Below are positions 5,128 to 63,984 of a stretch of DNA of 64,000 bases, in pieces (within the stretch, counting starts at the first letter, position 1; each line of letters opens with the position of its first letter). The stretch is from contig JAQVZU010000002.1 in NCBI GenBank assembly GCA_028708035.1, forward strand, positions 300 to 64,299, read 5' to 3'. Under the pieces are notes generated by a model, which saw nothing but the letters and a program-made list of their open reading frames with translations, searched no databases and was not told where the DNA came from. Origin of the DNA: Alphaproteobacteria bacterium. GTDB taxonomy: Bacteria; Pseudomonadota; Alphaproteobacteria; UBA9219. The position numbers and the translations under genes are program-made.

Positions 5128-5199
5128 GCGGGCGAGGGGGATTTGAACCCCCATCATCCCGATCTTCAATCGGACGCTCTACCGTTGAGCTAGCGCCTG
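5128..5199 (-). tRNA. Probable tRNA-Phe (anticodon GAA); the acceptor stem as read has two mismatches
   Basis: Minus-strand sequence shows a D-arm TAGCTCAACGGTAGAGC, an anticodon stem-loop TCCGA-TTGAAGA-TCGGG (anticodon GAA) and a T-arm GGGGG-TTCAAAT-CCCCC. CCA is not encoded. Acceptor 5' CAGGCGC pairs imperfectly with 3' TCGCCCG. Confidence 0.6.
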
Positions 5200-5397: not shown

Positions 5398-5472
5398 TGG
5401 TGGGTGCGACAGGGATTGAACCTGTGACCCCTACCGTGTGAAGGTAATGCTCTCCCGCTGAGCTACGCACCC
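5398..5472 (-). tRNA. tRNA-Val (anticodon CAC), CCA encoded
   Basis: Minus-strand GGGTGCG-TA-GCTCAGCGGGAGAGC-A-TTACC-TTCACAC-GGTAG-GGGTC-ACAGG-TTCAATC-CCTGT-CGCACCC-A-CCA forms a canonical cloverleaf with a perfect 7-bp acceptor stem. Confidence 0.85.
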
Positions 5473-5627: not shown

Positions 5628-6356
5628 TTAGGCGAAGTACTGCCCACCATTGATGGAGAAGGTTGCCCCTGTGGCAAATGCCGCTTTGTCGGAAGCAAGG
5701 AACAAAACCATTGAAGCAATCTCATCGGCCTTGCCGAGCCGCTTTACCGGTATCTTTTCCACGATCTTTGCCAAAACTTCAGGCGGAACCGCTCGAACCA
5801 TTTCGGTTTCGATATACCCCGGCGCGATGGCATTAACTGTGATGCCCTTGCTCGCAGACTCTTGAGCCAACGCTTTGGTGAAGCCAAGGATGCCTGCCTT
5901 GGCAGCCGCATAGTTCGTTTGCCCGACCTGGCCCGACTGCCCGTTAATCGAACTGATGTTGATAATGCGCCCGAACCCGCGCTCGCGCATCCCTTCGATC
6001 ACACATCGGCACATATTGAACACAGAGTCCAGATTTGTCTGAACGACTTCATGCCAATGCTTCGGCGTAGTCTTATGCAGAAACCCGTCGCGTGTGATGC
6101 CGGCATTGTTGACAAGAATGTCGATCGGGCCAAGCTCATCGGAGATCTTTTTGATGTTTTCGTTACAGGCATCAAAGCTGCCGACGTCGAACTTGAACGC
6201 CGGTATCCCCGTCTTTTCCGTAAACTTCTTGGCTGCGTCATCGTTGCCCGCATAGGTCGCCGCGACTTTATATCCGGCCTTGTCCAGAGCCTCGCAGATC
6301 GCCGCGCCGATCCCGCGCGTTCCGCCTGTCACTACCGCCACTTTGCTCATGTCCAT
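5628..6356 (-). CDS. phaB: Acetoacetyl-CoA reductase (SDR family, PhaB-like)
   Basis: Has the SDR cofactor motif VAVVTGGTRGIG, the NNAG motif, a YAAAKAG catalytic region and a PGYIETEM segment. It lies directly downstream of a thiolase gene. Start taken at MDMSKV; the ORF track extends further upstream. Confidence 0.85.
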   Translation of the reverse strand: MDMSKVAVVTGGTRGIGAAICEALDKAGYKVAATYAGNDDAAKKFTEKTGIPAFKFDVGSFDACNENIKKISDELGPIDILVNNAGITRDGFLHKTTPKHWHEVVQTNLDSVFNMCRCVIEGMRERGFGRIINISSINGQSGQVGQTNYAAAKAGILGFTKALAQESASKGITVNAIAPGYIETEMVRAVPPEVLAKIVEKIPVKRLGKADEIASMVLFLASDKAAFATGATFSINGGQYFA

Positions 6357-6363
6357 CTCCATA

Positions 6364-6420
6364 AAAAGATTGAAAAAGTCAAGTCTAAGACCAAGGCTCA
6401 GGCTTTCCCGAGCCTTGGTC
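6364..6420 (-). terminator. Hairpin/terminator between phaA and phaB
   Basis: Perfect 11-bp inverted repeat GACCAAGGCTC/GAGCCTTGGTC (6389-6420), followed on the minus strand by TTAGACTTGACTTTTTC. Confidence 0.5.
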
Positions 6421-6428
6421 TCCAAGCA

Positions 6429-7604
6429 CTATCTCTCGACACACATCGCGATACCCATGCCTCCGCCGATGCACAGCGTGGCAAGGCCTTTTTTGACGTT
6501 ACGCTTCTGCATTTCATGCAAAAGGGTCACGAGAATGCGCGCTCCCGATGCGCCGATAGGATGACCTAACGCCACAGCGCCGCCGTTGACGTTGACCTTC
6601 GATGTATCCCAGCCCATTTCCTTGTTAACCGCGCAAGCCTGGGACGCGAACGCTTCATTGGCCTCGATAAGATCGAGGTCGCCGACCTTCCACCCCGCTT
6701 TTTGTAGCGCTTTGCGGCTAGAGGGGATCGGCCCCGTTCCCATAATCGCCGGATCGACTCCTTCCGTCGCCCACGAGACAATCCGCGCCAGCGGCGTAAT
6801 CCCCCGCTTGGCCGCATCTTCTTCGGTCATCAAAACAACTGCCGCCGCACCGTCATTGATCGACGAAGCGTTGCCCGCCGTCACGGTCCCGTCCTTCTTG
6901 AAAGCGGGCCTGAGCTTGGCCAACCCTTCAAGAGTCGTCCCTGCGCGTGGATTTTCGTCCGTGTCGAAAGTCACGTCGCCCTTCTTGCCCTTGATAACGA
7001 CCGGAACAATCTCGTCCTTGAACCGGCCAGACTTAATCGCTGCTTCGGCCTTCGCCTGAGATGCAACCGAAAACTCGTCCTGCATTTCGCGCGTAATGCC
7101 AAACTTGGTTGCGACGTTTTCTGCCGTGATGCCCATGTGGTAATTATTGAAGATGTCCCACAGTCCATCACGGACCATTGTGTCAATCATCTCGGCATTG
7201 CCCAACTTAGTGGGCTGGCGAAGCAGAAGAGCGTGCGGGGCAAGGCTCATGCTTTCCATGCCGCCCGCGACGACGATTGAGGAGTCGCCCGCCTTGATCG
7301 ACATAAAACCATTGGCAACCGCGCGAAGACCAGATCCGCAAATCTGGTTAACGGCATAGGCGGGGCGTTCGACCGGGATGCCTGCATTGACCGCCGCAAA
7401 ACGAGCCGGACCTTGGCCTTGAGCCGCCCCCAAGACGTTGCCAAGAACAGTTTCAGATACTTCATTGGGTGCTGTTTTTGCGCGCGCCAATGCCTCTTTA
7501 ATACATAGGGTAGCAAGAGCTGAAGCGGTAAGAGAGGAGAGCCCGCCATTTAAGGTACCGATAGCCGTTCTTGCGGCTCCGGCGATCACAATAGAAGATG
7601 CCAT
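6429..7604 (-). CDS. phaA: Acetyl-CoA C-acetyltransferase (beta-ketothiolase)
   Basis: 391-aa thiolase with N-terminal [12 protein letters not shown], the active-site region [10 protein letters not shown] and C-terminal [18 protein letters not shown]. Confidence 0.9.
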
Positions 7605-10838: not shown

Positions 10839-11468
10839 ATGTTTTCAAAAAACAAACCCTCGCAAGCGAGGAAGGGTTTTACCCTCACTGAAATTGCGAT
10901 CGTTCTTGGTATTATGGGGCTGATCCTGGGCGCCATTTGGACTGCGGCTTCAAGCGTTTACGCCAATCAACGTACAGCGCACGCACAAACGGCAATACTG
11001 CAAATTGCTCAGGGCGTCAGGACACTTTACACTTCACAGGGGGGCACGGGATACACAGCTTTAACGGATATTACGGTAAATCTGAATTCAGCAGGCGTAA
11101 TTCCAAGCGATCTTAACGGCGGAGCGACTGGACCCTTTCCCAATGGACGTTCGGGTATTATTGCAACAAGCGATGGGAACGGGTTCGTTGTCGTGGTAAC
11201 TGGTGTTCCTCAATCGAACTGCATTAACTTGATTGCAGGCATTGCGGGCGCAAACCGTGATCCCGGTCTGTTTTCAGCATCTGCCGTGGCTGATGCAGCC
11301 ATTGGTACTGGTGATGCAGGGACTGGGGCAACGTTCGCGCCCTTACAGGATGAAGTTTCACCGACAGAGGCTGCGGCAGCCACGGTAAACGATGGCAATG
11401 GCGCTCCTATCGGCGGTTGCAATCGTACCACACTCAGCAAAGTTCGGTTTGGCTTCTCGATTAAGTAA
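10839..11468 (+). CDS. Type IV pilin / pseudopilin (prepilin-type N-terminal cleavage/methylation domain)
   Basis: N-terminus MFSKNKPSQARKG|FTLTEIAIVLGIMGLILGAIW has the class III signal G/FTLxE followed by a hydrophobic helix. A Cys pair (C128...C195) could form a D-region. Confidence 0.7.
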   Translation: MFSKNKPSQARKGFTLTEIAIVLGIMGLILGAIWTAASSVYANQRTAHAQTAILQIAQGVRTLYTSQGGTGYTALTDITVNLNSAGVIPSDLNGGATGPFPNGRSGIIATSDGNGFVVVVTGVPQSNCINLIAGIAGANRDPGLFSASAVADAAIGTGDAGTGATFAPLQDEVSPTEAAAATVNDGNGAPIGGCNRTTLSKVRFGFSIK

Positions 11469-22202: not shown

Positions 22203-22238
22203 AGAAAAAGCCCGCTCAGTAGAGCGGGCTTTTTTTAC
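22203..22238. terminator. Bidirectional intrinsic terminator
   Basis: GCCCGCTC-AGTA-GAGCGGGC hairpin flanked by an A-run and a T-run, lying between convergent genes. Confidence 0.75.
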
Positions 22239-23470
22239 GCCCTGCGAACTTCCTCGCGCGGCGGGATGGGAATTGATCGTTTATCCGGATCATGCAGATA
22301 CATATTAAGCGTAACAACCGCAGTGTCGACTCGCGGAATGGGCAGCGGCTTCTTTGCCGAAGTCTCGGCCATAAAGTGAGCCAAAGCCCCTGCCCCTTCG
22401 GTGTGAAACGCACGGCGCCCAAGGTTATTCAAGGGATACCAAAGGGAACGGTCTTCGGCGCGGAGCCACAAAAACGTCGCTGGAGCAAGAACGCCGCCAT
22501 TAGTCCTTGCCCAACGCAATGCGCCAAGCATTGCCGTTGTCCGCCAAGCATGCTGATCCATGACGGGCAGAAGTTTTCCCCCGATTTCAGGATCTTTCAG
22601 AATTCTTTTGATCTCGGCGATGATCTCGTGGTCTGGACGAAAGCCCTTGTCGGGAAACCAGCATTCTGAGATACGTCCTAAGAATGTATCGCTTTCTTCG
22701 CGCTTCTGAGCGCCTCTGAGCGCGAACCCCGCGAGTAAGGCTTTCATGTGCAACGGTAAAGAATCGATCCCGTTCCACCGCGGCCCCAACTGCTGAATAA
22801 ACGCGCGCCGGACAGCATCGCGCTCCGGTATCCCATTATTCACAGGGATGCGATGCCATGAAATCCATTCCTCGGGCGAAAGCGCTTCGCCGAAGTGCGG
22901 GATTTTGTCCGGCACCGTGCCCCCGAGAATACGCCCTGATTTGGATGGATTCAGCTTTACGATTGGTGAGAGCACTGGCCACATCTTGGCTTGGGTCGCA
23001 ATCAGGCTTTCAAGAGTATGCTTGGTCATGAATTTATAGCGCGGGGAAAACATGATGCTAAACCCGCCAATCCATAGCAACATGAAAAGAACAGGCCAGC
23101 GATAATAGCGCTCAACCTCGGCAGCGATGGGAGCAAGCGAATTAAGCGAAAGCTGATAGTATGACAATAAATCTTCACGCGGAAGCGATCTGAGAAGATC
23201 GACGCCAAAACACGCGTTTGCAGCCTGAATGACCTGGCCGCTCGGGCGCGGATCGTTGACCTGAGCGGTACGAAGGAAAGTTAGGCATGCATCGTAATTA
23301 TGCGTGAAAAGATTGACGATGAAAAGTTCTCCCCAGCGCAACCACCGCAAAACATAGTTAAGCCAGAAATCGCCAGTCATGCGCCAAAAAACGTATGACA
23401 CCACCGCAATTAGCAAAAGCAGCAGCACAAGAAGAATGCCGGGTTCACCGCCTTGGTTTTGAGCACTCAT
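22235..23470 (-). CDS. Hypothetical membrane protein (two N-terminal hydrophobic segments, large soluble C-terminal domain)
   Basis: 411-aa ORF with ATG start. TM segments ILLVLLLLLIAVVSYVFW and WPVLFMLLWIGGFSIMF precede an acidic/aromatic-rich C-terminal domain. No recognisable catalytic motif. Confidence 0.55.
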   Translation of the reverse strand: MSAQNQGGEPGILLVLLLLLIAVVSYVFWRMTGDFWLNYVLRWLRWGELFIVNLFTHNYDACLTFLRTAQVNDPRPSGQVIQAANACFGVDLLRSLPREDLLSYYQLSLNSLAPIAAEVERYYRWPVLFMLLWIGGFSIMFSPRYKFMTKHTLESLIATQAKMWPVLSPIVKLNPSKSGRILGGTVPDKIPHFGEALSPEEWISWHRIPVNNGIPERDAVRRAFIQQLGPRWNGIDSLPLHMKALLAGFALRGAQKREESDTFLGRISECWFPDKGFRPDHEIIAEIKRILKDPEIGGKLLPVMDQHAWRTTAMLGALRWARTNGGVLAPATFLWLRAEDRSLWYPLNNLGRRAFHTEGAGALAHFMAETSAKKPLPIPRVDTAVVTLNMYLHDPDKRSIPIPPREEVRRA

Positions 23471-44263: not shown

Positions 44264-44298
44264 ACAAGCGGTTCTATCCGGGCCGCTTGTTTTTGCGT
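44264..44298 (+). terminator. Intrinsic terminator after pnp
   Basis: ACAAGCGG...CCGCTTGT hairpin followed by TTTTTGCGTTT. Confidence 0.7.
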
Positions 44299-44385
44299 TT
44301 ACCCTTTGGTAACGCTGATACTTTAGTGTTCTCGGTGAAGTCTCGCTGCGCTATTTCCGAGAGCCAACAACCTTGTGTGCCAAAA

Positions 44386-45135
44386 ATGAAAATTCTCGTC
44401 ACCGTCAAACGCGTTATCGACTATAACGTTAACATCCGCATCAAGTCGGACAACAGCGGAGTCGAAACCGCCAACGTCAAAATGTCGATGAATCCATTCG
44501 ACGAAATCGCGGTCGAGGAAGCTATCCGCCTGAAGGAAAAAGGCATTGCGACCGAAACTGTAGTGGTGACACTGGGCCCAGCCGCCGCGCAGGAAACGCT
44601 AAGAACCGCGCTTGCAATGGGCATTGATCGGGCCATCCACATTCCGGTGGACACCGAAGTCCAATCCCTCGGTGTCGCGCGTGCCTTGAAAAAAATTGTC
44701 GAAAAAGAAAAACCCGATCTTATCATTATGGGCAAGCAAGCCATCGATCAGGAAAGCAATCAAACAGGCGCCCTGCTGGCGGCAAAGCTTGGGTGGCCGC
44801 AAGGCACCTTTGTCTCGAAACTTGAGGTCGCCGACGGCCAAGCCAAAGCAACCCGTGAAATTGATGGCGGTCTTGAAACCATCTCCATTAAGCTTCCCGC
44901 CGTCATCACTGCCGATCTGCGCCTTAACACGCCACGTTTTGCAACGTTGCCAAATATCATGAAAGCTAAGAAGCGTCCGCTTGAAACCATCAATGCGGCG
45001 GATTTAGGCGTTGACTTGACGCCTACCATCCAGACGCTGAAGGTGACGCCTCCGCCCGCGCGCAAGGGCGGAATTAAGGTCCCTGACGTTGCCACGCTGG
45101 TCGATAAGCTTAAAAACGAAGCCAAAGTGATCTAG
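44386..45135 (+). CDS. etfB: Electron transfer flavoprotein beta subunit
   Basis: [15 protein letters not shown]... matches EtfB. The ORF track N-terminal extension overlaps the pnp terminator and was trimmed. Confidence 0.85.
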
Positions 45136-45139
45136 TTTA

Positions 45140-45790
45140 ATGGCCTCGCCGCTCACAACAGCCGTCTTCGATCTTGGCGGGGTTCTTATCGATTGGAACC
45201 CCGACTACCTCTATCGTTCGCTGATTCTGGACGACGGAGAGCGCAAGCGTTTTCTAACCGAAGTATGCTCTCCGGCATGGAACTACAAACAAGACGAAGG
45301 CCGGACCTTTGCCGAGGCAGAAGCCGAACTGATCGCAAGTTATCCTGAAAAGGCTGCTCTAATCAAAGCTTGGCGCGAACGCTATACCGAAACGATGAAA
45401 GGCCCAATTCAGGGCTCAGTCGATCTATTAAAGAAATTAGACCAAACTGGCATAAACCTTTATGCCCTGACCAACTGGTCCTCGGAAACATTCCCGATTG
45501 CGCGCAATCGGTTTGATTTTCTAGGCATCTTCCGCGAGATTGTCGTTTCCGGCGAGGAAAAGCTCGCCAAACCAAATCCACGTTTTTACGAAGTTCTTAT
45601 CGACCGCTGCCATATCGACCCGCGCCAATCATTCTACGTCGATGATAACCCTCCTAATGTCGAAGCGGCCAAACGCCTCGGTTTCATTGCACATCGCTTT
45701 ACAACGCCCGAAGACCTGAAAGAAGCGCTTGTCCTTAATGGACTTTTAAATACTGAAAGGAAATCCCATGCCAGTTCTTGTTGTCGCTGA
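45140..45790 (+). CDS. HAD-superfamily hydrolase (subfamily IA-like)
   Basis: Motif I VFDLGGVLID, and a C-terminal DD motif (YVDDNPPNVEAAKRLG). Confidence 0.7.
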   Translation: MASPLTTAVFDLGGVLIDWNPDYLYRSLILDDGERKRFLTEVCSPAWNYKQDEGRTFAEAEAELIASYPEKAALIKAWRERYTETMKGPIQGSVDLLKKLDQTGINLYALTNWSSETFPIARNRFDFLGIFREIVVSGEEKLAKPNPRFYEVLIDRCHIDPRQSFYVDDNPPNVEAAKRLGFIAHRFTTPEDLKEALVLNGLLNTERKSHASSCCR

Positions 45791-46694
45791 ACACGACCAT
45801 AAAAGCCTAAAATCCGCGACACTTAGCACCATTACGGCGGCGGCAAAGTTAGGCCCCGTCACGGTCCTCGTAGCCGGACAGAATGCTGTTGCCGCTGCGC
45901 AGGAAGCCGCTTCCATCCAGGGCGTAGCCGAGGTGCTTCATGCCGACGATGCGGCCTACGCGAACTTCCTTGCCGAAAACCTTGCCGCGCTCACAGCCAA
46001 GCTTGCGCCGAATTATTCGCATGTCCTTGCCCCAGCCACAAGCTTTGGCAAAAACGTTCTTCCCCGTGTGGCAGGCCTGTGCGACGTCGCCCAAATCTCC
46101 GACATCATCGGAATCGAAAGCGCGGACACGTTTATCCGCCCCATCTACGCGGGCAATGCCATTGCCACGGTCAAATCGACTGATAAAATCAAGTTCATCA
46201 CCGTGCGCGGCACAGCCTTCGACAAAGCCGCCAAGGGAGGAAACGCTTCGGTCAAAACGATCGAAGGGGCAGGGGACTCCGGCCTTTCTTCTTTTGTCGG
46301 CGCAGAACTGACAAAATCTGCGCGCCCGGAATTGACGGCGGCAACGATTGTCGTCTCAGGCGGTCGCGGCCTTGACTCCGCCGATAAGTTCAAAGCGACC
46401 ATCGAGCCTTTGGCCGACAAGCTCAAGGCGGCTATTGGCGCATCGCGCTCGGCAGTTGACGCAGGTTTTATCTCGAACGATTGCCAGGTCGGCCAAACAG
46501 GTAAGATTGTGGCTCCAAACCTCTACATCGCCATCGGCATCTCGGGCGCAATCCAGCACTTGGCGGGCATGAAGGACAGCAAGACAATCGTCGCGATCAA
46601 CAAAGATCCCGACGCTCCCATCTTCGCCGTCGCCGATTACGGTATCGTCGGCGATTTGTTTACGATCGTGCCAGAGCTGGTAAAGGTTCTATAA
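45768..46694 (+). CDS. etfA: Electron transfer flavoprotein alpha subunit
   Basis: N-terminal [10 protein letters not shown] and a C-terminal FAD-binding region ([34 protein letters not shown]). Confidence 0.85.
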
Positions 46695-49274: not shown

Positions 49275-52013
49275 TTACTGGGCAACTCCGTGGCAGTGCT
49301 TGTATTTCTTCCCGGAGCCGCAGGGACAAGCCGCGTTGCGCGGGGTATCGCCCCAGGTATCGGGATTAGCCGGATCGAAGGGCTGGTTCTGCGCCGGAAC
49401 GGTGGCCATGGTCCCGCTTCGCACGACCATACCCTCGGGCATTGGCTCTGCGCCGAAGGGCAAAGCCCCCGCCGCATCTGCGCCGCTAAGCTCCTGCATC
49501 GCTGCCGCACGCTGCCGTTCAAGGATTTCCTCCATAGAAGGGAGTTGCATCCCGGCATGCATCAGGGTCTTCGTGACTTTCTCCTGGACTGCGATCCGCA
49601 TAAACTCATAAAGCCCAAATGCCTCGCGGCTGTATTCGTTCAAGGGATCGCGCTGCCCATAGCCGCGCAAATGGATGCCTTGGCGAAGCTGATCCAATGC
49701 GAGAAGATGTTCTTTCCAGATCTGATCGAGCGTTCCGAGCAACGCTGCTTTTTCTGCATGGCGCAAAGCGCTCGGGTCGATAACGGAAGTCTTCTCTTTA
49801 AGCTTCTCTTCGGCGGCCTTCTTGATGCGCTCTTCGATCTCGACCTCGCCGATGTTTTCCGATAACCAAGCGTCAATCGGCAGATCAAGCGCCAGAAAGT
49901 CCTTAATATGTTCCTTTAAGCCCTCAACGTCCCATTGCTCGACATAAGAATGGGGCGGAATGGCCGTAGCCACCATGCGATGAATAACCTCTTCGCGAAA
50001 ATCATTGATGATCTCCGAGACATCAGTCGATCCCATGATTTCGCGGCGCTGTTCGTAAATAACCTTGCGCTGATCGTTCATGACGTTGTCGAACTTCAGC
50101 AGATTCTTGCGAATGTCGAAGTTGCGCTCTTCGACTTTCTTCTGAGCCTTTTCCAAAGCGGTGGTAATCCACGGATGCGCAATCTTTTCGCCATCGCGCA
50201 GACCTAGCTTTGCAAGAATAGCCTGCGTCTGGTTATGCGCGCCGAAAATCCGCATCAAGTCGTCTTCCAGCGAAAGGAAAAACATTGAAGCTCCCGGATC
50301 GCCTTGGCGGCCCGATCTTCCGCGCAACTGGTTGTCAATGCGCCGGGATTCATGCCGTTCGGTGCCGATCACAAACAATCCGCCTGCTTTCCGGACCTCC
50401 TCGCGCGCCTCGTCAATTTCTTTGCGCAGAGCGGTGACGGTGCTTTCGTCAGGCTCGCCCTTCGACCTTAATTCCGCAAGCCGCGCCTCGAAATTGCCCC
50501 CCAACTGAATATCGGTGCCCCGGCCCGCCATGTTCGTCGCGATGGTAACGGCTCCTGGACGCCCCGCCTGTGCGATGATCCCCGCTTCCTGATCGTGAAA
50601 CCGGGCATTAAGCACGTTATGCGGAATGCCCCGCTTCTTCAGCAAACCGGAAAGGAATTCCGACTTTTCGATCGACACGGTTCCAACAAGCGTTGGTTGC
50701 TTGCGCTTACGGCACTCGTCAATCAAGCGAATGATCGCTTCGTTCTTCTCCGAAAGGGTCCCATAAACCTCATCGTCCATATCGTTGCGAATTACCGGCA
50801 CGTTAGTCGGAATTTCAACAACCTCAAGGTTATAGATCTCAGCGAACTCCGCCGCTTCGGTTAAAGCCGTACCGGTCATGCCCGACAGCTTCGGATAAAG
50901 GCGGAAATAGTTCTGAAACGTAATGCTGGCCAAGGTCTGGTTTTCGCGCTGGATCGTGACGTGCTCCTTCGCCTCCAAAGCCTGATGCAGCCCGTCCGAA
51001 TAACGGCGACCCTCCATCATGCGGCCCGTAAACTCGTCGATGATGATGACCTTATCGTTCTTGACAATATAATCGACGTCGCGGGCAAACAGCTTATGTG
51101 CGCGCAAAGCCTGGTTCACGTGGTGAACAATGGATACATTGGCCGCATCGTAAAGCCCATTCGAGTTCGGAGCCAAAAGACCAGCTTCGCCCAGAAGCAC
51201 CTCGATCCTCTCGTTGCCCTGTTCTGTCAGAACGACGGTTTTGGCCTTCTCGTCCTTTTCGAAATCCGCGGCTTCAAGTTTCGGAATAATCTCGTTGACG
51301 CGGATATAAAGCTCGGAAGAATCTTCAGCGGGCCCCGAAATAATCAAAGGCGTCCGAGCCTCATCGATCAAAATACTGTCGACTTCGTCAACAATGGCAA
51401 AATTGAATGCGCGCTGAACCAGATCTTTGCGCGCGAATTTCATGTTGTCGCGCAAATAATCAAATCCGAATTCGTTGTTCGTTCCGTAGGTGATGTCTGC
51501 GTTGTATTGAGCGCGCCGCTCGTCGTCGTCGAGCCCATGAACGATGCAACCTACCGAGAGCCCCAAAAAGGCGTGAATTTGCCCCATCCACGCGCTGTCG
51601 CGTTGAGCCAGATAATCATTGACGGTTACAACATGCACGCCTTTGCCCGTCAGCGCGTTCAAATAGCTTGGTAAGACGGCAACCAAAGTCTTTCCTTCGC
51701 CCGTGCGCATCTCGGAAATCTTTCCCTGATGCAAAACGATGCCGCCGCGCAGCTGAACATCAAAAGGCCTTTGTCCCAAAACGCGCCAAGCTGCCTCCCT
51801 GACAGTTGCGAAAGCCTCGGGAAGCAATGAATCCAAAGGTTCACCCTTGTCGAGCCGGGCTTTAAACTCTTCCGTCTTTGCCCGCAGGGCTTCGTCGGAA
51901 AGAGATTTAAACTGGGACTCCAACGCATTAATCCGCTCGATAACAGGCGTTTGATCCTGTAAAACGCGGTCGTTATGGGACCCAAAAATTTTGCGAACGA
52001 TGGAAGATATCAT
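49275..52013 (-). CDS. secA: Preprotein translocase ATPase SecA
   Basis: Conserved N-terminus ...[11 protein letters not shown]...[12 protein letters not shown] and the C-terminal zinc motif [14 protein letters not shown]. Confidence 0.9.
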
Positions 52014-52173: not shown

Positions 52174-53229
52174 CTATTGAATCGAACCTTTTGTTCCGCG
52201 CACGATCCAAGAATCTCCTTGGGCTTCGATCGCAACAACCTTGCCGATGCTCTCGACGGCATCACCTACATGCACCTTCTTAAAATCATTGGTTTCGGCA
52301 TTTTTGGCAATCAACCCTTCGCCGGGCGCCGCCGCACGTAAAACCCATGTGGTTGCTGGCTCGGAATTAACGGCGCTCTTACGAGCTTTGGGGGCCATTT
52401 TATGTCTTATGCTTTTCTTGACGGCTGCGCCAGCCTCATCCGACGCGGCGCCTTCAATGTTTGCGCTTTGCCCCACCTGCTTGCGGCCGATGCGCTTTTC
52501 AAGCTGTTTTAGCCGTTCTTCAAGGTTCTTTTTGGAAGCAGAAGAATCGTCTTCGATCTGGCTCAATTGTTGATTTGCCAAATCAAGAGCTTTTTGAAGA
52601 TCTTCAACGCGTGTGGTCAGTGTATCTATCCGGTTTTGGGCGTCACTAGTTGCGGTTGGCGCCTGAGCAGCCGGGGGCGGTGGCAGCGGCACAGCTTGAA
52701 CATGCGAGGCATCCGTGGAAACTGTGGCGGGCTGAGGCGATGGCGGTAACGAAAGCGGCGCCGGAGCTGCTGCTACGGAAGCTGGGGTTGGTTCAGCCGG
52801 GATAGCTTGAACTTCTGGTGTTGGCACAGGGACGGGGGCTGGCGTCTCTGAAACTTGGGTGCCGCCATTGCTTTGATCGGAGACAAGAGCAGGAGCTTCA
52901 TTCGGCGGAGGCGCTGGGCGCGTAGCGTCTTCGCCCGCTGGAGCTTGTGCCAAGTTTATTTCTTTCATGGATTTTCCGCCCATTTGCCACCAAGCGGTAC
53001 CGCCCAAAAGAACGATGCCCGCTAAAGCAACTGCAAGAGGAAGCGCGGCAGATCTCTTTGCCGGAGCGGCTGCTATTTCATCGGGAGGAAGCTCGTCGGA
53101 GAACTCGTATTCCGAAGGCGCTTCGGCAGGAGGGGCTTCTATGGAAGAATCCTGAACGTCCTTCAATGCGTTATCAGCGGACATATTTTCATTATTATCT
53201 TGCGGCGATGAGCCGAAGGTATCTGTCAT
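52174..53229 (-). CDS. Bitopic Pro/Ala-rich periplasmic protein, candidate DotF/IcmG-like type IVB secretion component
   Basis: Acidic cytoplasmic N-terminus, one TM segment (LPLAVALAGIVLLGGTAWW), a long P/A-rich linker, a coiled coil (LTTRVEDLQKALDLANQQLSQIEDD...LEERLKQLEKR) and a small C-terminal beta domain. It follows the VirB9-like and VirB10-like genes on the same strand. Start taken at MTDTFG (AGGAG 8 nt upstream). Confidence 0.5.
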   Translation of the reverse strand: MTDTFGSSPQDNNENMSADNALKDVQDSSIEAPPAEAPSEYEFSDELPPDEIAAAPAKRSAALPLAVALAGIVLLGGTAWWQMGGKSMKEINLAQAPAGEDATRPAPPPNEAPALVSDQSNGGTQVSETPAPVPVPTPEVQAIPAEPTPASVAAAPAPLSLPPSPQPATVSTDASHVQAVPLPPPPAAQAPTATSDAQNRIDTLTTRVEDLQKALDLANQQLSQIEDDSSASKKNLEERLKQLEKRIGRKQVGQSANIEGAASDEAGAAVKKSIRHKMAPKARKSAVNSEPATTWVLRAAAPGEGLIAKNAETNDFKKVHVGDAVESIGKVVAIEAQGDSWIVRGTKGSIQ

Positions 53230-53275
53230 GGAAAGCTCCTGCAATGTCTGCCGGGCGGGGTGCCCAGCGTCTCAG

Positions 53276-54799
53276 TTAGTTCTTGTTTTGGACGTAAGGC
53301 GTGTTGGCGTTGTTGCGTCCCGAGATAGAACCGCTGCCATTATAGCCGGTATTCACGCCGTTATAAGGGCCATTTTGTGAATTTACATAAGCGCCCGCCT
53401 CGCCGGGAAAATTCGACCTTCCTGGCGCATAGTTGACGCTGTATCCTTGACTGTACCCTTGGCTATATCCTTGATCGACAGTTGTGCTCTGTTGCGCCGG
53501 AGAAGAACCCTTGACCGCAGTCAAAAAGAACATGCCAAACGGCGTTCCCGGCGCGACGCGAACCAAAGGCCTCGTCACGCTGGCTTGTTGTTGAAAAAAC
53601 TGCCCGACCGTGTTGGCAGCCTGCCCTAATCCGGCATACATGCCTTGCTCAAATCCGGCTCGCGCTTGCGTTGTAATGGTTGTTGTGCCGGTATTGGTGA
53701 TCGATGTATCTCCCTGTCCCATCGCCTGCCCAATACCTTGAATAAAGCTGGCGGCGGCCGGAAGAACAACGCGCGAGAAATATCTTTCGTCAACCTCCGT
53801 CGCCATGCCCCCAAGAGTGGTTTCGGGATCCAGCGCAATAGCGTTGATCGAGTAATCCTTGCCGTTTTTGTCTGCCAGCGAAAACCTCATAACCAGATAT
53901 TTTTCATATCCGTCGGCGACCTGAAAAGAGCCTATCGCCCTCGCTCCAGTAAGGGGTCCCGACACAATCTGCGCAAGAATGGGACCCGGAACGTCAGAAT
54001 TGGCTTCCGACAAAAGCTGAGCATAACTGACGGTGCCTGGCGAAATAATCGGCTTCTGTTCGACCACCACCGCAGCAGCTGTTGATTCCACGCCCATGGG
54101 GACGTCTCCGCCCATAATTCTGTCGTTGCCGCCTACAAAGTCGGCATTAGCGTTTCCGCTGCTGGTGTTTTTGTTCTCATCCTTAAGAGAAACGGTAACC
54201 GCCTTCATGCCCTGCGCCTGCCAACTCGACATCAATTGGTTTAATTGTCTTTGCATGGCATCCGCGAGCGAATTGTCAAAATTCTCAGTTGGCCGCGTGG
54301 TCTTTTGCTGTTCGCGAACCTGCCGTTTAAGCTGCTCCGTCTCAGCGCGAAGTTCCTTCAGAGGATCGGCTCCCTTGTTGTTCAGGGCATTGCTCGAAAT
54401 ATCTGTCGTCTGCCCCAGCGGGGTTGGGATGGCACTTCCGCCCGTATTAAGCGCCTGCTCAACACGTTGATTGTTGGCAAGTTCGGTCTGCTGGCGCAAA
54501 TACGGAGATGCTTTGCCTCCGGGAGCTTCCTTAATAGATGGTGGGCGCGAGAGATGAGCAACCTCCTTCCCCTCATTGCTGCTGCCGAAGAATTTGATCG
54601 CGGCAGCGCCTACCGCAAAAACGCCAATGACCAGAGCCGTAAACTTAAACAAAGGCTTTTCGCGCAATGCCTCAACGATGGTTCCTATGCCGCTTTTTGG
54701 CGCGGATTCATCCACGGGTTCCATTTCGCTGTCGGAAAACTCGTTATTTTCCGTATTTTCGTCGTTCTCGCCGTTTTCATTTCCAAAATCAGTTGTCAT
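53276..54799 (-). CDS. VirB10/TrbI-family type IV secretion protein (DotG/IcmE-like)
   Basis: Acidic N-terminus, a single TM segment (FKFTALVIGVFAVGAAAIKFF), a coiled coil and a C-terminal domain matching the VirB10/TrbI signature (LSEANSDVPGPILAQIVSG...GSFQVADGYEKYLVMRFSLADKNGKDYSINAIALDPETTLGGMATEVDERYF). Start set at MTTDFG to remove the overlap with the upstream gene. Confidence 0.65.
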   Translation of the reverse strand: MTTDFGNENGENDENTENNEFSDSEMEPVDESAPKSGIGTIVEALREKPLFKFTALVIGVFAVGAAAIKFFGSSNEGKEVAHLSRPPSIKEAPGGKASPYLRQQTELANNQRVEQALNTGGSAIPTPLGQTTDISSNALNNKGADPLKELRAETEQLKRQVREQQKTTRPTENFDNSLADAMQRQLNQLMSSWQAQGMKAVTVSLKDENKNTSSGNANADFVGGNDRIMGGDVPMGVESTAAAVVVEQKPIISPGTVSYAQLLSEANSDVPGPILAQIVSGPLTGARAIGSFQVADGYEKYLVMRFSLADKNGKDYSINAIALDPETTLGGMATEVDERYFSRVVLPAAASFIQGIGQAMGQGDTSITNTGTTTITTQARAGFEQGMYAGLGQAANTVGQFFQQQASVTRPLVRVAPGTPFGMFFLTAVKGSSPAQQSTTVDQGYSQGYSQGYSVNYAPGRSNFPGEAGAYVNSQNGPYNGVNTGYNGSGSISGRNNANTPYVQNKN

Positions 54800-56045
54800 G
54801 TTCTTCTTCCCGCAAAATTTGAGCGCGAACGAGCGCGCCATTATCCGATAGCACAAGGACGGGCGCGGACCCTACTTCATATACGGACGTGCCATCCGGC
54901 GATACCATGCTGGCATTCCATGCGGGCGAAAGAAGGGTCAAAGGCGTGCGTACATAAACCTTATCGCCAATGGCCCACGCCTTTGTTCTTTGATCCAATC
55001 CCCCTACTTTGACGCGCGTCGCTCCTGGGGGCGGCGTAGTCTCAAGAAAGTGGGCCAGAGTATCATCACCGGCCTGGGGCCTGGAGAAACTGCTACGTTC
55101 GACAAGAGGCGGCTTGGCTTGAGGTCCTGATTTATCGATGCGCGCATCATAGCGTAGATCAACGGTAGGCCCTCCTGACGAAAGTCTGAAAATGACAGGC
55201 GTCGGAAGATTTTTAAGCATGACAGAGAGATTGCCTACGCCGATGCGCGTCAAAGGCATGACGCGAACCACATGGGACCCAGCCCCGGTTGGCGTTACTT
55301 CAAAATTGCCGCCGATGCCGACATCCAGGATTGGCCAAGGTTCCCCGGTTGAATCCACAATAGTAATCGTTGTTATAAATCCAGCGTTCAGATTAATCTG
55401 CGGTGGCGAAACGCCCGGATCGAGAGACACAGGAATCAAACGTGTAATTCCTTTTGGCGTGCCTTCATAAGGAGGTTGCGATGCCTGCTGAGTTTGTTCC
55501 AATCGCCGCATGAAATCGCGAATTTGGTCCGGAGATAGCGGCAGAAGTCCGTTTGATGCCTTGTCGTAGGATTTGGCGTTATACTCGCGCTCTCTCTTCA
55601 AGGCCTCTGCATCTGCATCAGCCTCAGCTTGAAGGGCTGCTTGTGAGGCTTCCTGCGCCAGCTTCGCCGGATCGGAAGAAAATGCCGATGCAGGCGGCGG
55701 GGACGGAATATCGATGCCCGATGAACTGGACACAATTTTCTTCGGTGGCGTTGCCGCAGGCGGATTTGTTGCAGGAGGAGGATTTCCAACCGGTTGCGGC
55801 GCGACATCTGGCGTTGAAGAATCCGCTGCCGGAGATATGTCTGCGATTGTGGGCAGGACAACGGGTGCTGAAGAGGATTTTGAATCAGTCGGCGCGTTGG
55901 GAATGGCAATGCCTGATGGAGCACTAGAAGCAGAAGGCGAAGCCCCTGAAACGGCAAGCAGGACTCCCACTGTAAGCAGGAAGATTTTTCTCCGTCTTGT
56001 CGAGAGGTGAAGCGGCTGGTTCAGCAAAGGACATCTCCGGAGCAA
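54789..56045 (-). CDS. VirB9/TrbG-family secreted protein (DotH/IcmK-like)
   Basis: Sec signal peptide (RRRKIFLLTVGVLLAVSGASPSASSA), a P-rich region and a C-terminal region with the VirB9-like pattern (...IGDKVYVRTPLTLLSPAWNASMVSPDGTSVYEVGSAPVLVLSDNGALVRAQI). Confidence 0.6.
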   Translation of the reverse strand: MLRRCPLLNQPLHLSTRRRKIFLLTVGVLLAVSGASPSASSAPSGIAIPNAPTDSKSSSAPVVLPTIADISPAADSSTPDVAPQPVGNPPPATNPPAATPPKKIVSSSSGIDIPSPPPASAFSSDPAKLAQEASQAALQAEADADAEALKREREYNAKSYDKASNGLLPLSPDQIRDFMRRLEQTQQASQPPYEGTPKGITRLIPVSLDPGVSPPQINLNAGFITTITIVDSTGEPWPILDVGIGGNFEVTPTGAGSHVVRVMPLTRIGVGNLSVMLKNLPTPVIFRLSSGGPTVDLRYDARIDKSGPQAKPPLVERSSFSRPQAGDDTLAHFLETTPPPGATRVKVGGLDQRTKAWAIGDKVYVRTPLTLLSPAWNASMVSPDGTSVYEVGSAPVLVLSDNGALVRAQILREEEHDN

Positions 56046-56199
56046 AAGCTCTAATCAATAGAATCTACTTGTTTGACCACAGGAAAGTTAATAGTAAGTT
56101 TACTTATAGCCATCGTTTATTCCCTAATTCAAGCCCCACAGAAACATAAAAAATCGTGAAACAACAACAATCTTTCATCGGCTCGAATTAACCAAAAGG

Positions 56200-56610
56200 T
56201 TGCCCATGGCCAAACTTCACATTGTGCCGCTCTATGCGGGTATTTTAGGCCTCTTTTTAGTAGTTTTGTCGTTCAACATGCTCCGGGTGTGGATGCAACA
56301 GAAGGACGCCGAGGGAAATCGAGAGCTTTTGCGAGCCGAAGCGCTGGTCTCGAGCTTCGGCGAGTATGTTCCCTTGGCGCTGCTTCTCCTGTTATGCGCG
56401 GAAATAGCGGGAGTTCCAAGCTGGGCATCGCATATGCTTGGCGCCGCGCTTGTCGCCGCGCGGGTTATGCATGCTTTTGGCAGCAACGCCGCGCGCGGTT
56501 CCGCTCTTTTGCGTTTTGCTGGTGCGCAGCTAACCTATCTTGTCATCAGCCTTGCGAGCTTTTCATGCCTGTTTTTCTACGCGGTGCCGGGCGCTGCCAA
56601 CCTCAAATAA
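56200..56610 (+). CDS. Small four-TM membrane protein, possibly MAPEG family
   Basis: 136-aa protein with four hydrophobic helices and an RVMHAF...RFAG pattern. This is a weak call. Confidence 0.35.
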   Translation: MPMAKLHIVPLYAGILGLFLVVLSFNMLRVWMQQKDAEGNRELLRAEALVSSFGEYVPLALLLLLCAEIAGVPSWASHMLGAALVAARVMHAFGSNAARGSALLRFAGAQLTYLVISLASFSCLFFYAVPGAANLK

Positions 56611-56657: not shown

Positions 56658-58166
56658 CTAGTCACGCTTCGTTTCCATCGCATCCTGATCGAGCAAGGGC
56701 TTCCCAGTTTCTTTGCCTTCGTCAAAATGCGCAGTTCTCAAAAGCCGCAGCAAAAGCTCGACATCCTCGCGAAACGCCGCGTCATATGCCGATAATTCCT
56801 CAATCTTTCTTACTGCATGAATGACAGTGGTGTGGTCGCGCCCGCCGAATTTGCGTCCAATTTCAGGAAGGCTTCGCGGCGTCAGTTGCTTGGCCAGATA
56901 CATCGCGACTTGCCGAGGCCGCGCTACAGCCCGCGACCGGCGCGCCGAATGCATGTCGGCCACGCGAACGTTATAATGTTCAGCGACTTTTTTCTGAATT
57001 TCATCGATCGTAACCCGCCGTTCGGATGCGCGAAGCATGTCCGAAAGGACTTCTTGCGTCATTTCCAGAGAAATCGTTCTCCCCACAAGCTGCGCATGCG
57101 CCACAATGCGGTTCAGCGCGCCTTCAAGTTCGCGCACGTTCGACGCGATCTTATGCGCTAGAAATTCCATGACCTTATCAGGCACCGGGCATCCAAGCTT
57201 CTCGGCCTTGGCATACAGAATCCCGAGCCGCAACTCGTAGTTGACCGGGTGCAGATCCGCAACCAATCCCCATCCCAAGCGAGAGCGCAGCCGCTCCTCC
57301 ATCCGGTCCAAGTCCTGCGGGGATTTGTCCGCCGAGATAATAACCTGGCGATTTCTGTCAACCAGCGCATTGAATGTATGGAAAAATTCCTCTTGCGTGG
57401 AATCCTTTCCGCCAATGAACTGAACGTCGTCAATCATCAAAACGTCAACGGACCGGAATTGTTCTTTAAATGAAACAGTGTCCTTAAACCGAAGAGCCCG
57501 CACGAATTGATACATAAACTTTTCGGCCGACATGTAAATAACGCGGCGATGCGGGTAATTCTTTCTGATGTGCCAAGCAATGGCGTGCATAAGATGGGTT
57601 TTTCCTAGCCCGACGCCTCCGTAAAGGAAAAGAGGATTGAATGCCGGAGTCTCGGTGTCGGCGACGCGACGAGCGGCGGCATAAGCAAGTTCATTGGGCT
57701 TTCCGACAACAAAATTGTCGAAGGTAAATCGCGGATCAAGTTCTGCCGAAAGCTCGCCGCTAAAACTTCCCGATCCCGCTGGTGCCGAAACGGGCAGCCT
57801 TCCTATGGGCGCAAGAGGAGCGGCAGCCGCTGCATCGATAGCAGTTTTAGCTTGCGCCGCCTTTGACAAAGGAGAAAGAACTGAAAAACTGACACTCCCG
57901 CGAGGCGACATCTCCTGCCACAAGGAAAGAATGGCTTCGCCGTAATGCGCCTCGACCCAATCGCGCATAAAGCGGGTGGGCAATACCAGCGCGGCGCATT
58001 TGCAGCCCGAAGCCTCATGAACGACAGCGCCGGTCATGGGTTCAAGCCATCTGCGAAAAGCTGTTTCGCCAAATCGACTGCGCATTGAGGCGCGCAAAGT
58101 TCCAAAGGCTATCTCAGGATTACCGGAATCTTCTTCTTTAGAAATCGCGTTTGATAGGACCTTCAT
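56658..58166 (-). CDS. dnaA: Chromosomal replication initiator DnaA
   Basis: Walker A GGVGLGKTHLMHA, box VII, sensor regions and the C-terminal DNA-binding domain (VAMYLAKQLT...GGRDHTTVIHAVRKIE). The ORF track begins at a GTG at 58169. Confidence 0.9.
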   Translation of the reverse strand: MKVLSNAISKEEDSGNPEIAFGTLRASMRSRFGETAFRRWLEPMTGAVVHEASGCKCAALVLPTRFMRDWVEAHYGEAILSLWQEMSPRGSVSFSVLSPLSKAAQAKTAIDAAAAAPLAPIGRLPVSAPAGSGSFSGELSAELDPRFTFDNFVVGKPNELAYAAARRVADTETPAFNPLFLYGGVGLGKTHLMHAIAWHIRKNYPHRRVIYMSAEKFMYQFVRALRFKDTVSFKEQFRSVDVLMIDDVQFIGGKDSTQEEFFHTFNALVDRNRQVIISADKSPQDLDRMEERLRSRLGWGLVADLHPVNYELRLGILYAKAEKLGCPVPDKVMEFLAHKIASNVRELEGALNRIVAHAQLVGRTISLEMTQEVLSDMLRASERRVTIDEIQKKVAEHYNVRVADMHSARRSRAVARPRQVAMYLAKQLTPRSLPEIGRKFGGRDHTTVIHAVRKIEELSAYDAAFREDVELLLRLLRTAHFDEGKETGKPLLDQDAMETKRD

Positions 58167-58514
58167 CACAACCCCGCAAAAAACGAAACCATCGACAAAA
58201 GAAACTACAGACCCGAAAAGAGTCTCCGGGCTTTTAATCGGACAGACTTTTAGGACGTAGAGCGAGAGGAAGGACCGGCGCAGGAAAAACAGCGATCAAA
58301 AACGGGTTGTGATTTATATCCGTTCATAGTTTTGATCCTATCCACCGGCATCAAATCCAAAGTGGAGCGACCATAAATCAAACCGAAGCCACTTGTCCAC
58401 AGGACCGAAGAGAGAACGACTGAAAAAATTTTTTCTCAAACAGAAAAAATTTCTTGCCACGCTAAAATGTGCAACAACAAAAGGACGAAATAAAAAATTG
58501 ATGAAGTGAAGCAG

Positions 58515-62583: not shown

Positions 62584-63984
62584 ATGCTTCTTTTCGCAGC
62601 GGCGTTGCTGACGGTAACGGGTTTCCGCGTTTGTAACATTCTTGAGAGAAGCGTCGGCGCTGATTTTTACCAATATTGGGCGATAGGTCTTGGCCCCGAA
62701 CTGAGCAAGGGCGCTTTAAAAAGCCCCTACGTTCAGCTTCCCGAATATGTGTCGGCGTTCGACGCGCAAGCCAAAAAAACCAGCGATCTCCGCCTGTTTG
62801 CGGTCAACAAGCTTGGTCATCGCTGGTATGAAAAAGGACTCGATATACCCGGTACCCCGCTGCTGTATGCGCTATTTGGGGCGTCCTCGTTTGACTACTC
62901 AAAAACATTCACAGTCTTTTCTATCGCCAAGGCGCTTCTGTTCGTTGGTGCTACATGCTTGTTTCTTGTGTGCTGGCAAACAAAGCTCCATCTGCTGTTG
63001 CCGTTGTCGCTTGCTATTGCCTTTGGTTACGGTCCACTGATAAATGACTTTCGCGTAGGCAATCTGGCCGCGCTTCAATACGCCATTATCCTCGCGCTAT
63101 CTTTTTTTTTGGACTCCTTACAAAAAGAATCCCCCAGACGTTTCCCGGAAATTTTCTTCATAAGCTTCCTGGCATTTTTGGTTCTTGTTAAGCCCAATAT
63201 CCTTCTTGTCGCGCTTGCTTTATCGGCTGTTTTCTGGCGCAAGCGCGGCGGCAAGGCTTTCGTTGTCTCCGCCTTAAGCGCCACGTTTTTAAGCTTATTT
63301 CTGATCGCGCTTCCTTGTATCCATTACGGCTCGCCGTCCGTCTGGAACGATTGGCTGGGATATCTCTCAGCCCTTGAAAGCAAGCGCTTTTACCCGATCA
63401 AAGACGGCAACTCTTCGTTGACGCTTGCGCTTGCTGACGCATTGGGAACACCACCAACTATTGTCTGCGCGTTGGTCGCTTTTCTTCTTCTCACGCACGT
63501 GCTGTATGCCGTTCATAAAAACAGGCCCGCGGAAGTCCCTCGCTTTGATTACGCCAAGGCCGCAATATCCGCCTTCATGCAAGATGCTTTTCTGTGCGTA
63601 TCCGCCGCTATTGTCGTAACTCTCGCGACTTCCCCATTGGTGTGGCAGCATTACTATGTTCTCTCGCTGATCCCCGCATTCTGGCTCATCGCAAAAAGTT
63701 CTTCGTCAAGTCGCTTGGCATTCCTCGCACTGCTCTCTCTTGCGCTTTCCTCGGGCTTGTTACCAATGGCAGTTCCCTTTTTCAGAAAAGGCGCGGCCCA
63801 ATACATCGTCGTTGCAACCGCATGGATGCCTTTGTGGTTCGGAATCCAAACCGTCGTAGCTAATAGGTTGAAAAACCTTACATTTTTAAAATTTGAAAAG
63901 CCTACGGATGCCCTTTCGGATTCTGAAAATCAACGTCCGCATACTTGCGTTCCGGCGCAGGAAAAGCGCATGATAGGGAAATGA
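62584..63984 (+). CDS. Polytopic membrane protein, possibly a DUF2029/GT87-like glycosyltransferase
   Basis: 466-aa protein with more than ten TM helices and a large first loop. This is a weak family call. Confidence 0.4.
   Translation: MLLFAAALLTVTGFRVCNILERSVGADFYQYWAIGLGPELSKGALKSPYVQLPEYVSAFDAQAKKTSDLRLFAVNKLGHRWYEKGLDIPGTPLLYALFGASSFDYSKTFTVFSIAKALLFVGATCLFLVCWQTKLHLLLPLSLAIAFGYGPLINDFRVGNLAALQYAIILALSFFLDSLQKESPRRFPEIFFISFLAFLVLVKPNILLVALALSAVFWRKRGGKAFVVSALSATFLSLFLIALPCIHYGSPSVWNDWLGYLSALESKRFYPIKDGNSSLTLALADALGTPPTIVCALVAFLLLTHVLYAVHKNRPAEVPRFDYAKAAISAFMQDAFLCVSAAIVVTLATSPLVWQHYYVLSLIPAFWLIAKSSSSSRLAFLALLSLALSSGLLPMAVPFFRKGAAQYIVVATAWMPLWFGIQTVVANRLKNLTFLKFEKPTDALSDSENQRPHTCVPAQEKRMIGK

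Follow-up and report, generated by a model that had tools for sequence, protein, structure and literature searches.

A three-gene locus between dnaA and secA

The stretch of DNA analysed here, a 64-kb window of contig JAQVZU010000002.1 (assembly GCA_028708035.1, Alphaproteobacteria bacterium), carries three minus-strand genes whose products resemble DotH, DotG and DotF of the Dot/Icm, or type IVB, secretion system (T4BSS). They lie between dnaA (56658–58169) and secA (49275–52013). An earlier note, made from the sequence alone, had described three co-directional genes at this place, and the list of open reading frames (ORFs) confirms them at 54789–56045 (418 aa from a TTG codon), 53276–54856 (526 aa) and 52174–53244 (356 aa). 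Start sites shorten all three. The ORF of dotH/icmK reaches the TTG at 56045, and the more likely start is the TTG at 56027, which has a GGAGA Shine–Dalgarno sequence in front; the gene, at 54789–56027, would then encode an outer-membrane-associated, VirB9-like core-complex subunit of 412 aa. The dotG/icmE gene (53276–54799) encodes a bitopic VirB10/TrbI-like channel subunit of 507 aa from the ATG at 54799, and the dotF/icmG–traP-like gene (52174–53229) encodes 351 aa from the ATG at 53229, with an AGGAG Shine–Dalgarno sequence upstream. Sizes of 412, 507 and 351 aa were also obtained when genes were called independently on a contig (L014) that is 99.96% identical.

Read directly from the sequence, the dotG ATG (54799–54797) falls within the last codons of dotH (stop at 54791–54789), giving an 11-nt overlap, ATGACAACTGA, and the identical overlap was called in four relatives. 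The dotG stop and the dotF ATG are 46 nt apart, and 160 nt separate dotF from secA. Of the 10–46 bp spacing given earlier, the 46-nt dotG–dotF gap therefore stands and the 10-bp dotH–dotG gap is replaced by an overlap; of the flank distances, the 160 nt to secA stands, and part of the ~600 bp that separate dnaA from dotH is taken up by a plus-strand gene for a MAPEG-family membrane protein (56200–56610; Pfam E-value 8.9e-14). The MAPEG gene is found at the same position in five relatives. Since it is on the opposite strand, the trio has its own divergent AT-rich upstream region (56028–56199, minus strand; ~155–175 nt), presumed to contain the promoter. A search of the minus strand for terminator-like sites at the two short gene junctions found none. 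The overlap, the Shine–Dalgarno sequence before dotF and the lack of an internal terminator-like site point to a small operon for three envelope-spanning subunits, and the overlap together with the short spacing suggests coupled translation of three subunits of one assembly.

The G+C content of the trio equals that of its surroundings, and no relaxase, integrase or tRNA gene was found beside it; the sole tRNA genes of the window are far away, at 5.1–5.5 kb. Placement of the trio within a mobile element was rejected on these grounds.

Identity of the DotH and DotG products

The first product matched the Pfam family PF12293 (T4BSS_DotH_IcmK) with an E-value of 2.7e-70 and 236.6 bits (cut-off 25) over model positions 1–237 of 238, and a phmmer search aligned its residues 118–408 with residues 67–356 of Legionella pneumophila IcmK (PDB 6x62; E-value 2.5e-46). 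These are the matches that the earlier note had expected of a DotH/IcmK protein, and at the level of sequence they identify the product as such; the Pfam match, like the IcmE/DotG match of the second product given below, is much too strong to have arisen by chance. Reading of the translation by eye bore out the Sec signal peptide claimed for it (basic RRRK, the hydrophobic stretch IFLLTVGVLLAV, then SGA), and its N-terminal region of ~150 aa is rich in Pro, Ala and Ser. GenBank already names this protein 'DotH/IcmK family' (MDD4615615.1), from a start that leaves it shorter, at 314 aa.

The second product matched the NCBIfam IcmE/DotG model (NF033900) with an E-value of 1.1e-46 over positions 726–1005 of 1008 only, and its 159.5 bits lie below the equivalog cut-off of 750. 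It also matched TraO_IncI1 almost end to end (3.9e-23, 82 bits, model positions 10–375 of 381), Pfam TrbI (2.9e-14, 53.8 bits, cut-off 35) and residues 771–1043 of L. pneumophila DotG (PDB 7muc/9ngw; 3.6e-21); the VirB10 equivalog gave 14 bits. Because only the C-terminal part of the IcmE/DotG model is aligned, the protein lacks the long central region of its Legionella counterpart. Judged by these profiles, it belongs to the DotG/TraO group as a short protein of TraO length and does not qualify as a Legionella-type equivalog, and its VirB10/TrbI C-terminal domain is closest to type IVB members. The TrbI and IcmE scores thus agree with the VirB10/TrbI C-terminal signature read earlier, and the DotG profile and PDB matches with the DotG expected from it. 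Past the VirB10-like domain and the Legionella DotG match, the protein ends in a G/Y/S/N/Q-rich tail of ~75 residues (GYSQGYSQGYS...; 53276–53500, minus strand).

Membership of the DotG C-terminal domain in the TrbI/VirB10 superfamily is also what would be seen if the locus were a type IVA virB9–virB10 pair followed by an unrelated protein. This we regard as refuted, by the 14 bits of the VirB10 equivalog against 159 bits for IcmE, by the full-length match of DotH to a type IVB-specific Pfam family and by the direct matches to Legionella IcmK and DotG. The preference of the earlier note for type IVB over type IVA is upheld by the same scores (PF12293 over the whole model; IcmE 159.5 > TraO 82 > VirB10 14 bits).

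A DotF-like third product

The third protein has an acidic cytoplasmic N-terminus, one transmembrane helix, a variable Pro/Ala-rich linker, a coiled coil and a C-terminal beta domain of ~65 aa, a layout that agrees with the earlier statement that it has no ATPase motifs and is not a VirB11. An alignment of nine orthologues shows the transmembrane helix, the coiled coil and the ~65-residue C-terminal domain to be the conserved parts. The gene directly follows dotG, and the alignment predicts a bitopic inner-membrane topology with a periplasmic C-terminal domain. The NCBIfam IcmG_DotF model matched the protein with an E-value of 6.7e-5 and 22.7 bits (cut-off 200) and matched eight of the nine orthologues at E<0.05 (best 2.2e-8), always under the curated cut-off; two of the nine matched the TraP model. 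An hhalign comparison with an annotated plasmid TraP aligned the C-termini end to end (P=4e-4, probability 34%). Position, architecture and this weak but consistent profile evidence suggest that the product is DotF/TraP-like.

Solitary dotM and dotO genes

A fourth gene of the same type of system lies within the window, 29 kb from the trio. At 22235–23470 (minus strand), dotM/icmP encodes a 411-aa protein, predicted to be the inner-membrane subunit of the type IV coupling complex, with a C-terminal cytoplasmic domain and an N-terminal membrane part. It matched Pfam DotM_C (1.3e-46, 159 bits, cut-off 27), NCBIfam DotM_IcmP (5.8e-50; 170 bits, under the equivalog cut-off of 230) and, over residues 86–364, PDB 6sz9 DotM (E-value 3e-25), and these profile and template matches identify it as DotM; GenBank labels it 'hypothetical protein PHW76_00475'. 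The gene stands alone as the last of a gidA–gidB–parA–parB string, directly after parB. A gidAB–parAB–dotM–Bax1 arrangement is also present in a 585-kb contig (L009) from the Joint Genome Institute (JGI); an exact copy of the window's DotM was sought in the contig index and none was found. The earlier statement that no other type IV secretion genes are adjacent thus remains accurate for the immediate neighbours of the trio and does not extend to the whole window.

A DotO gene was found outside the window. The protein MDD4616979.1 (P0329), which carries the NCBI name IcmB, is among the homologues of the DotO of a related cluster, and we identify it as IcmB/DotO by this sequence relationship; no PDB entry was matched by DotO, and the window's clade is absent among the 120 matches listed for the DotO homologues. 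Its accession follows those of the window proteins by ~1,400; its gene lies on an 8.5-kb contig of run SRR22315502, which also yields the 99.96%-identical copy of the window locus; and the G+C content of that contig is 0.519 vs 0.517 for the window. Accession order, shared run and G+C content indicate that the contig very probably comes from the same metagenome-assembled genome (MAG) as the window. This dotO has no neighbours other than a phaR-like gene and a gene with an SH3 domain. In four contigs of the window's clade (at 4585–7581 of L013, and in L016, L030 and L070), icmB/dotO stands alone, directly after a phaR-like (PHB_acc) gene.

The earlier note had left a choice between a secretion system split into dispersed loci and a three-gene periplasmic module doing something else. 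In the second case a DotH–DotG–DotF ring would serve another apparatus or act alone, for example with a type IVb-like pilin; the trio would be transcribed apart from every other T4BSS gene, and the window does hold a PilS-like pilin gene at 10839–11468. No partner genes of another apparatus stand beside the trio, however, and the type IVB-specific DotM and DotO are retained and conserved in the same lineage. We consider a repurposed module very unlikely; dispersal is the better supported of the two options, with dotM 29 kb away by parB and dotO alone by phaR.

The pilin gene itself (plus strand) encodes an N-terminal methylation motif and a PilS-like domain of the type IVb, IncI thin-pilus kind. 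It is an isolated gene, flanked by corC and a Mg-chelatase-like gene, and a pilin-like gene with an N-methylation motif is found at the same place in L009.

Conservation of the trio in relatives

The order rpsT–dnaA–MAPEG–dotH–dotG–dotF–secA is kept in six related MAGs and metagenome contigs, which provides the orthologous trios at the dnaA–secA position that the earlier note had proposed looking for. A MAG from Kiruna (L003/L008) has dotHGF between yceG and a curli-like csgF/csgG cluster instead, so that the three genes must have been relocated together on more than one occasion. Between these genomes the synonymous divergence (pS) is 0.65–0.79, so that synonymous sites are saturated, and the non-synonymous divergence (pN) is 0.14–0.20 for dotH, 0.19–0.27 for dotG and 0.31–0.42 for dotF, as compared with 0.07–0.11 for dnaA and secA. 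The non-synonymous rate of the trio is thus two to four times that of its two flanking genes. As pN is far below the saturated pS, all three genes are under purifying selection, and the ORFs are intact in all relatives examined. The trio is maintained by selection and evolves faster than core housekeeping genes.

Among the homologues are proteins labelled 'Bdellovibrionales bacterium', one of them with the exact synteny of the window. NCBI taxonomy files the alphaproteobacterial predator Micavibrio under Bdellovibrionales, and the lineage is probably GTDB Micavibrionales or a neighbour. Affiliation with Holosporales was rejected, this group being reported to rely on type VI secretion.

Probable fragmentation of an ancestral cluster

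In more distant MAGs, whose DotH is ~63% identical, the genes form a contiguous cluster beside aconitase, in the order x–dotI–dotI'–dotH–dotG–dotF–traQ/icmC-like–x–dotN–dotO–dotM–x–dotL. When the 13 cluster proteins of a related MAG were compared with the window, only the trio and dotM were matched. A census of gene context at 80 metagenomic DotO loci gave a graded picture. The closest relatives of P0329 (78–81% identity) all have phaR–dotO and lack any further T4BSS gene within 10 kb; the full contiguous cluster is present in relatives at 70–73% DotO identity; a group at 56–60% has dotI–dotH–dotG–(dotF)–traQ–x–dotN–dotO, which is the order of Legionella region II; and at several loci the cluster is split in part. 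The dnaA–trio–secA locus and solitary phaR–dotO loci occur together in one JGI sample (Ga0265297). The contiguous cluster in distant relatives and the solitary pieces here indicate that the lineage fragmented an ancestral cluster; the simplest explanation is that a Legionella-like cluster was progressively dispersed, the clade of the window being the most fragmented state seen. Such genes are numerous in the database, with >1,000 cluster representatives of IcmB/DotO, >675 of DotM and >450 of DotH.

Fragmentation into singletons would also be seen in a decaying system, with the trio, dotM and dotO as remnants from which no secretion machine is built any longer. Such decay would likewise be compatible with the two- to fourfold faster non-synonymous change of the trio relative to dnaA and secA, and with the fact that the other subunits were not observed for this genome, of which 64 kb were covered. 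Intact ORFs in every relative examined, positions conserved across lineages in which synonymous sites are saturated and pN is far below pS, and a DotO identity of 78–81% among the solitary copies all speak against decay, and we judge it improbable.

The same gene order is found in conjugation systems. TraN, TraO and TraP, the homologues of DotH, DotG and DotF, occur in this order on thousands of conjugative plasmids, an IncK2/Z plasmid is annotated DotI–DotH–TraO–TraP–TraQ, and such a cluster also lies on an alphaproteobacterial megaplasmid, that of Methylorubrum extorquens AM1; the trio could then be the apparatus of an integrated mobile element (mating pair formation, MPF, type I, IncI-like). 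DotG here is similar in length to IncI TraO and aligns with it over the full length, and the C-terminus of TraP aligns with the C-terminal domain of the DotF-like protein. Identity to the plasmid proteins is only 30–37%, however (DotH ~37%), and the Dot/Icm models outscore the Tra models. Unlike an IncI system, the genes are chromosomal, scattered and fixed at the dnaA–secA position across species, with a G+C content equal to that of the flanks and no integrase or repeats nearby. No relaxase was found in the window by general Pfam scans, nor after dotL or in the 10-kb flanks of the related clusters. That the trio is the conjugation apparatus of an integrated element is, in our view, highly improbable. 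The IncK2/Z plasmid and the related MAG clusters do bear out the dotH–dotG–dotF order on which the earlier note had laid stress.

The Methylorubrum cluster (674944–705705 of the 1.26-Mb megaplasmid of this cultured bacterium) is an unannotated MPF type I cluster, dotI–dotH–dotG–...–dotN, and its proteins are 29–34% identical to those of the related MAGs.

Other features of the window

The window is an origin-proximal housekeeping region that contains dnaG, leuA, dnaJ, gidA, gidB, parA, parB, rho, mreCD, PBP2, hslUV, pnp, etfBA, secA, dnaA, rpsT and der, and 40 further ORFs were scanned with Pfam. At 196–5025 (minus strand), beside tRNA-Phe (5128–5199) and tRNA-Val (5398–5472), lies the gene for a 1609-aa protein with DUF4011, a superfamily 1 helicase (AAA_11/AAA_12), a REase_MTES_1575 nuclease and DUF3320, which could be a defence or mobile-element-related gene. 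The polyhydroxybutyrate (PHB) genes phaA and phaB follow at 5628–7604. A HAD-family hydrolase gene (45140–45790, plus strand) is inserted between etfB (44287–45135) and etfA (45768–46694), which are directly adjacent in two relatives (L010 and L097). Last, a 466-aa protein beside der (62584–63984, plus strand) has no Pfam match and is conserved and fast-evolving (56% identity in L001), with two tandem copies in L002.

Discussion

In the Legionella machine, the cap at the outer membrane and the ring in the periplasm are built from DotH, DotG, DotF and two lipoproteins, DotC and DotD (complexes 6x62 and 7muc), DotO and DotB supply energy, and DotL–DotM–DotN recruit effectors. By analogy with it, we favour, with a probability of roughly 0.78, the reading that the scattered genes described here still encode one working protein-translocating Dot/Icm machine. 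DotH would be exported by the Sec pathway and take its seat under the outer membrane; DotG would be anchored in the inner membrane, its VirB10-like C-terminal domain forming the channel; and the DotF-like protein, also anchored in the inner membrane, would reach the periplasmic/outer-membrane ring with its C-terminal domain. In the assembled machine the three subunits would join the lipoproteins DotC and DotD and be linked to the ATPase DotO and to the DotL–DotM–DotN coupling complex, and protein effectors would be pushed into a contacted target cell. The pieces of the ancestral cluster have become fixed among housekeeping genes, with dotHGF between dnaA/MAPEG and secA, dotM after parB and dotO after phaR. 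We infer that the remaining subunits are encoded elsewhere in this genome and that the substrates are proteins. The target may be a protist host, by analogy with Legionellales, or bacterial prey, by analogy with Micavibrio; the host-associated or intracellular lifestyle suggested in the earlier note is one possibility, and predation on bacteria is just as possible.

Several observations weigh against this reading. DotA, DotB, DotC, DotD, DotI, DotL, DotN and IcmT were not seen in the 64 kb of this genome that the analysis covered. The homology of the third product to DotF is weak, every match being below the curated cut-off; PDB searches with the single sequence and with a nine-sequence profile gave chance coiled-coil matches and no DotF, and fold searches based on single-sequence models likewise failed to retrieve it. 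Of the DotF assignment expected earlier from profile and PDB searches, the weak IcmG_DotF profile matches are thus what was obtained, and a PDB sequence match was not. A scan for the sigma-70 consensus upstream of dotH gave no match, so that the promoter placed there is a presumed one. Finally, the assignment of dotO to the same MAG is a probable one, made by accession order, run and G+C content and not by a shared contig.

The closest known counterpart of the preferred machine is the L. pneumophila Dot/Icm system, to which DotH, the C-terminal domain of DotG and DotM have direct sequence matches. Legionella region II reads icmL–icmK–icmE–icmG–icmC–icmD–icmJ–icmB; its dotH–dotG–dotF order is identical to that of the trio, and the related MAGs keep the region as dotI–dotH–dotG–dotF–traQ/icmC-like–x–dotN–dotO. 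The system here differs in that its host is an alphaproteobacterium and not a member of the Legionellales, in a DotG of 507 aa without the long central region, in long Pro/Ala-rich segments of DotH and DotF, and in genes dispersed one by one among housekeeping genes. The Rickettsiales, also an alphaproteobacterial lineage, have a chromosomal type IV secretion system, rvh, with genes scattered in several islets; the analogy is one of genome organisation only, as rvh belongs to type IVA (VirB/VirD4) and has no family-level relationship to the type IVB genes here.

In the reviews searched, Dot/Icm systems that translocate effectors are presented as a distinguishing trait of Legionellales and of a small number of other Gammaproteobacteria, and one analysis calls IcmG/DotF Legionella-specific. 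The DotH family name in GenBank was already available, and Dot/Icm-type systems in Micavibrionales have received a single brief mention: Needham et al. 2022 (PMC9418006) list, without further comment, such systems (pT4SSi) in seven marine Micavibrionales genomes, the same system type in what is probably the same broad lineage as the window. Their Methods describe detection by contiguous (ordered-replicon) gene clusters, which a scattered system would therefore probably escape. The genome of Micavibrio aeruginosavorus has no type IV secretion system, according to the paper that described it in 2011. In the literature searched, we found no description of the dispersal into housekeeping loci, of solitary dotM or dotO genes, or of the breadth of the radiation (>1,000 DotO cluster representatives).

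Here such a machine, with a DotF/TraP-like gene among its parts, would be fixed in the chromosome of a widespread uncultured alphaproteobacterial lineage. More bacteria than those known so far would then probably inject proteins into other cells, and the ancestral parts of Dot/Icm could be sought in a lineage that is independent of the others. Tools that detect gene clusters probably overlook such a system when its genes are scattered. Should the lineage share the predatory habit of Micavibrio, bacteria and not protists could be the target, and interest would be higher if the system proved to act on bacterial prey. A bolder and unlikely extension is that a large radiation of uncultured Alphaproteobacteria, found around the globe and probably Micavibrionales-like, carries a vertically inherited chromosomal Dot/Icm system, functional although its genes stand as singletons by dnaA, parB and phaR, with which relatives of Micavibrio, an epibiotic predator, inject effectors into bacterial prey. 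If true, it would be the first case of predation on bacteria by means of a Dot/Icm-type system.

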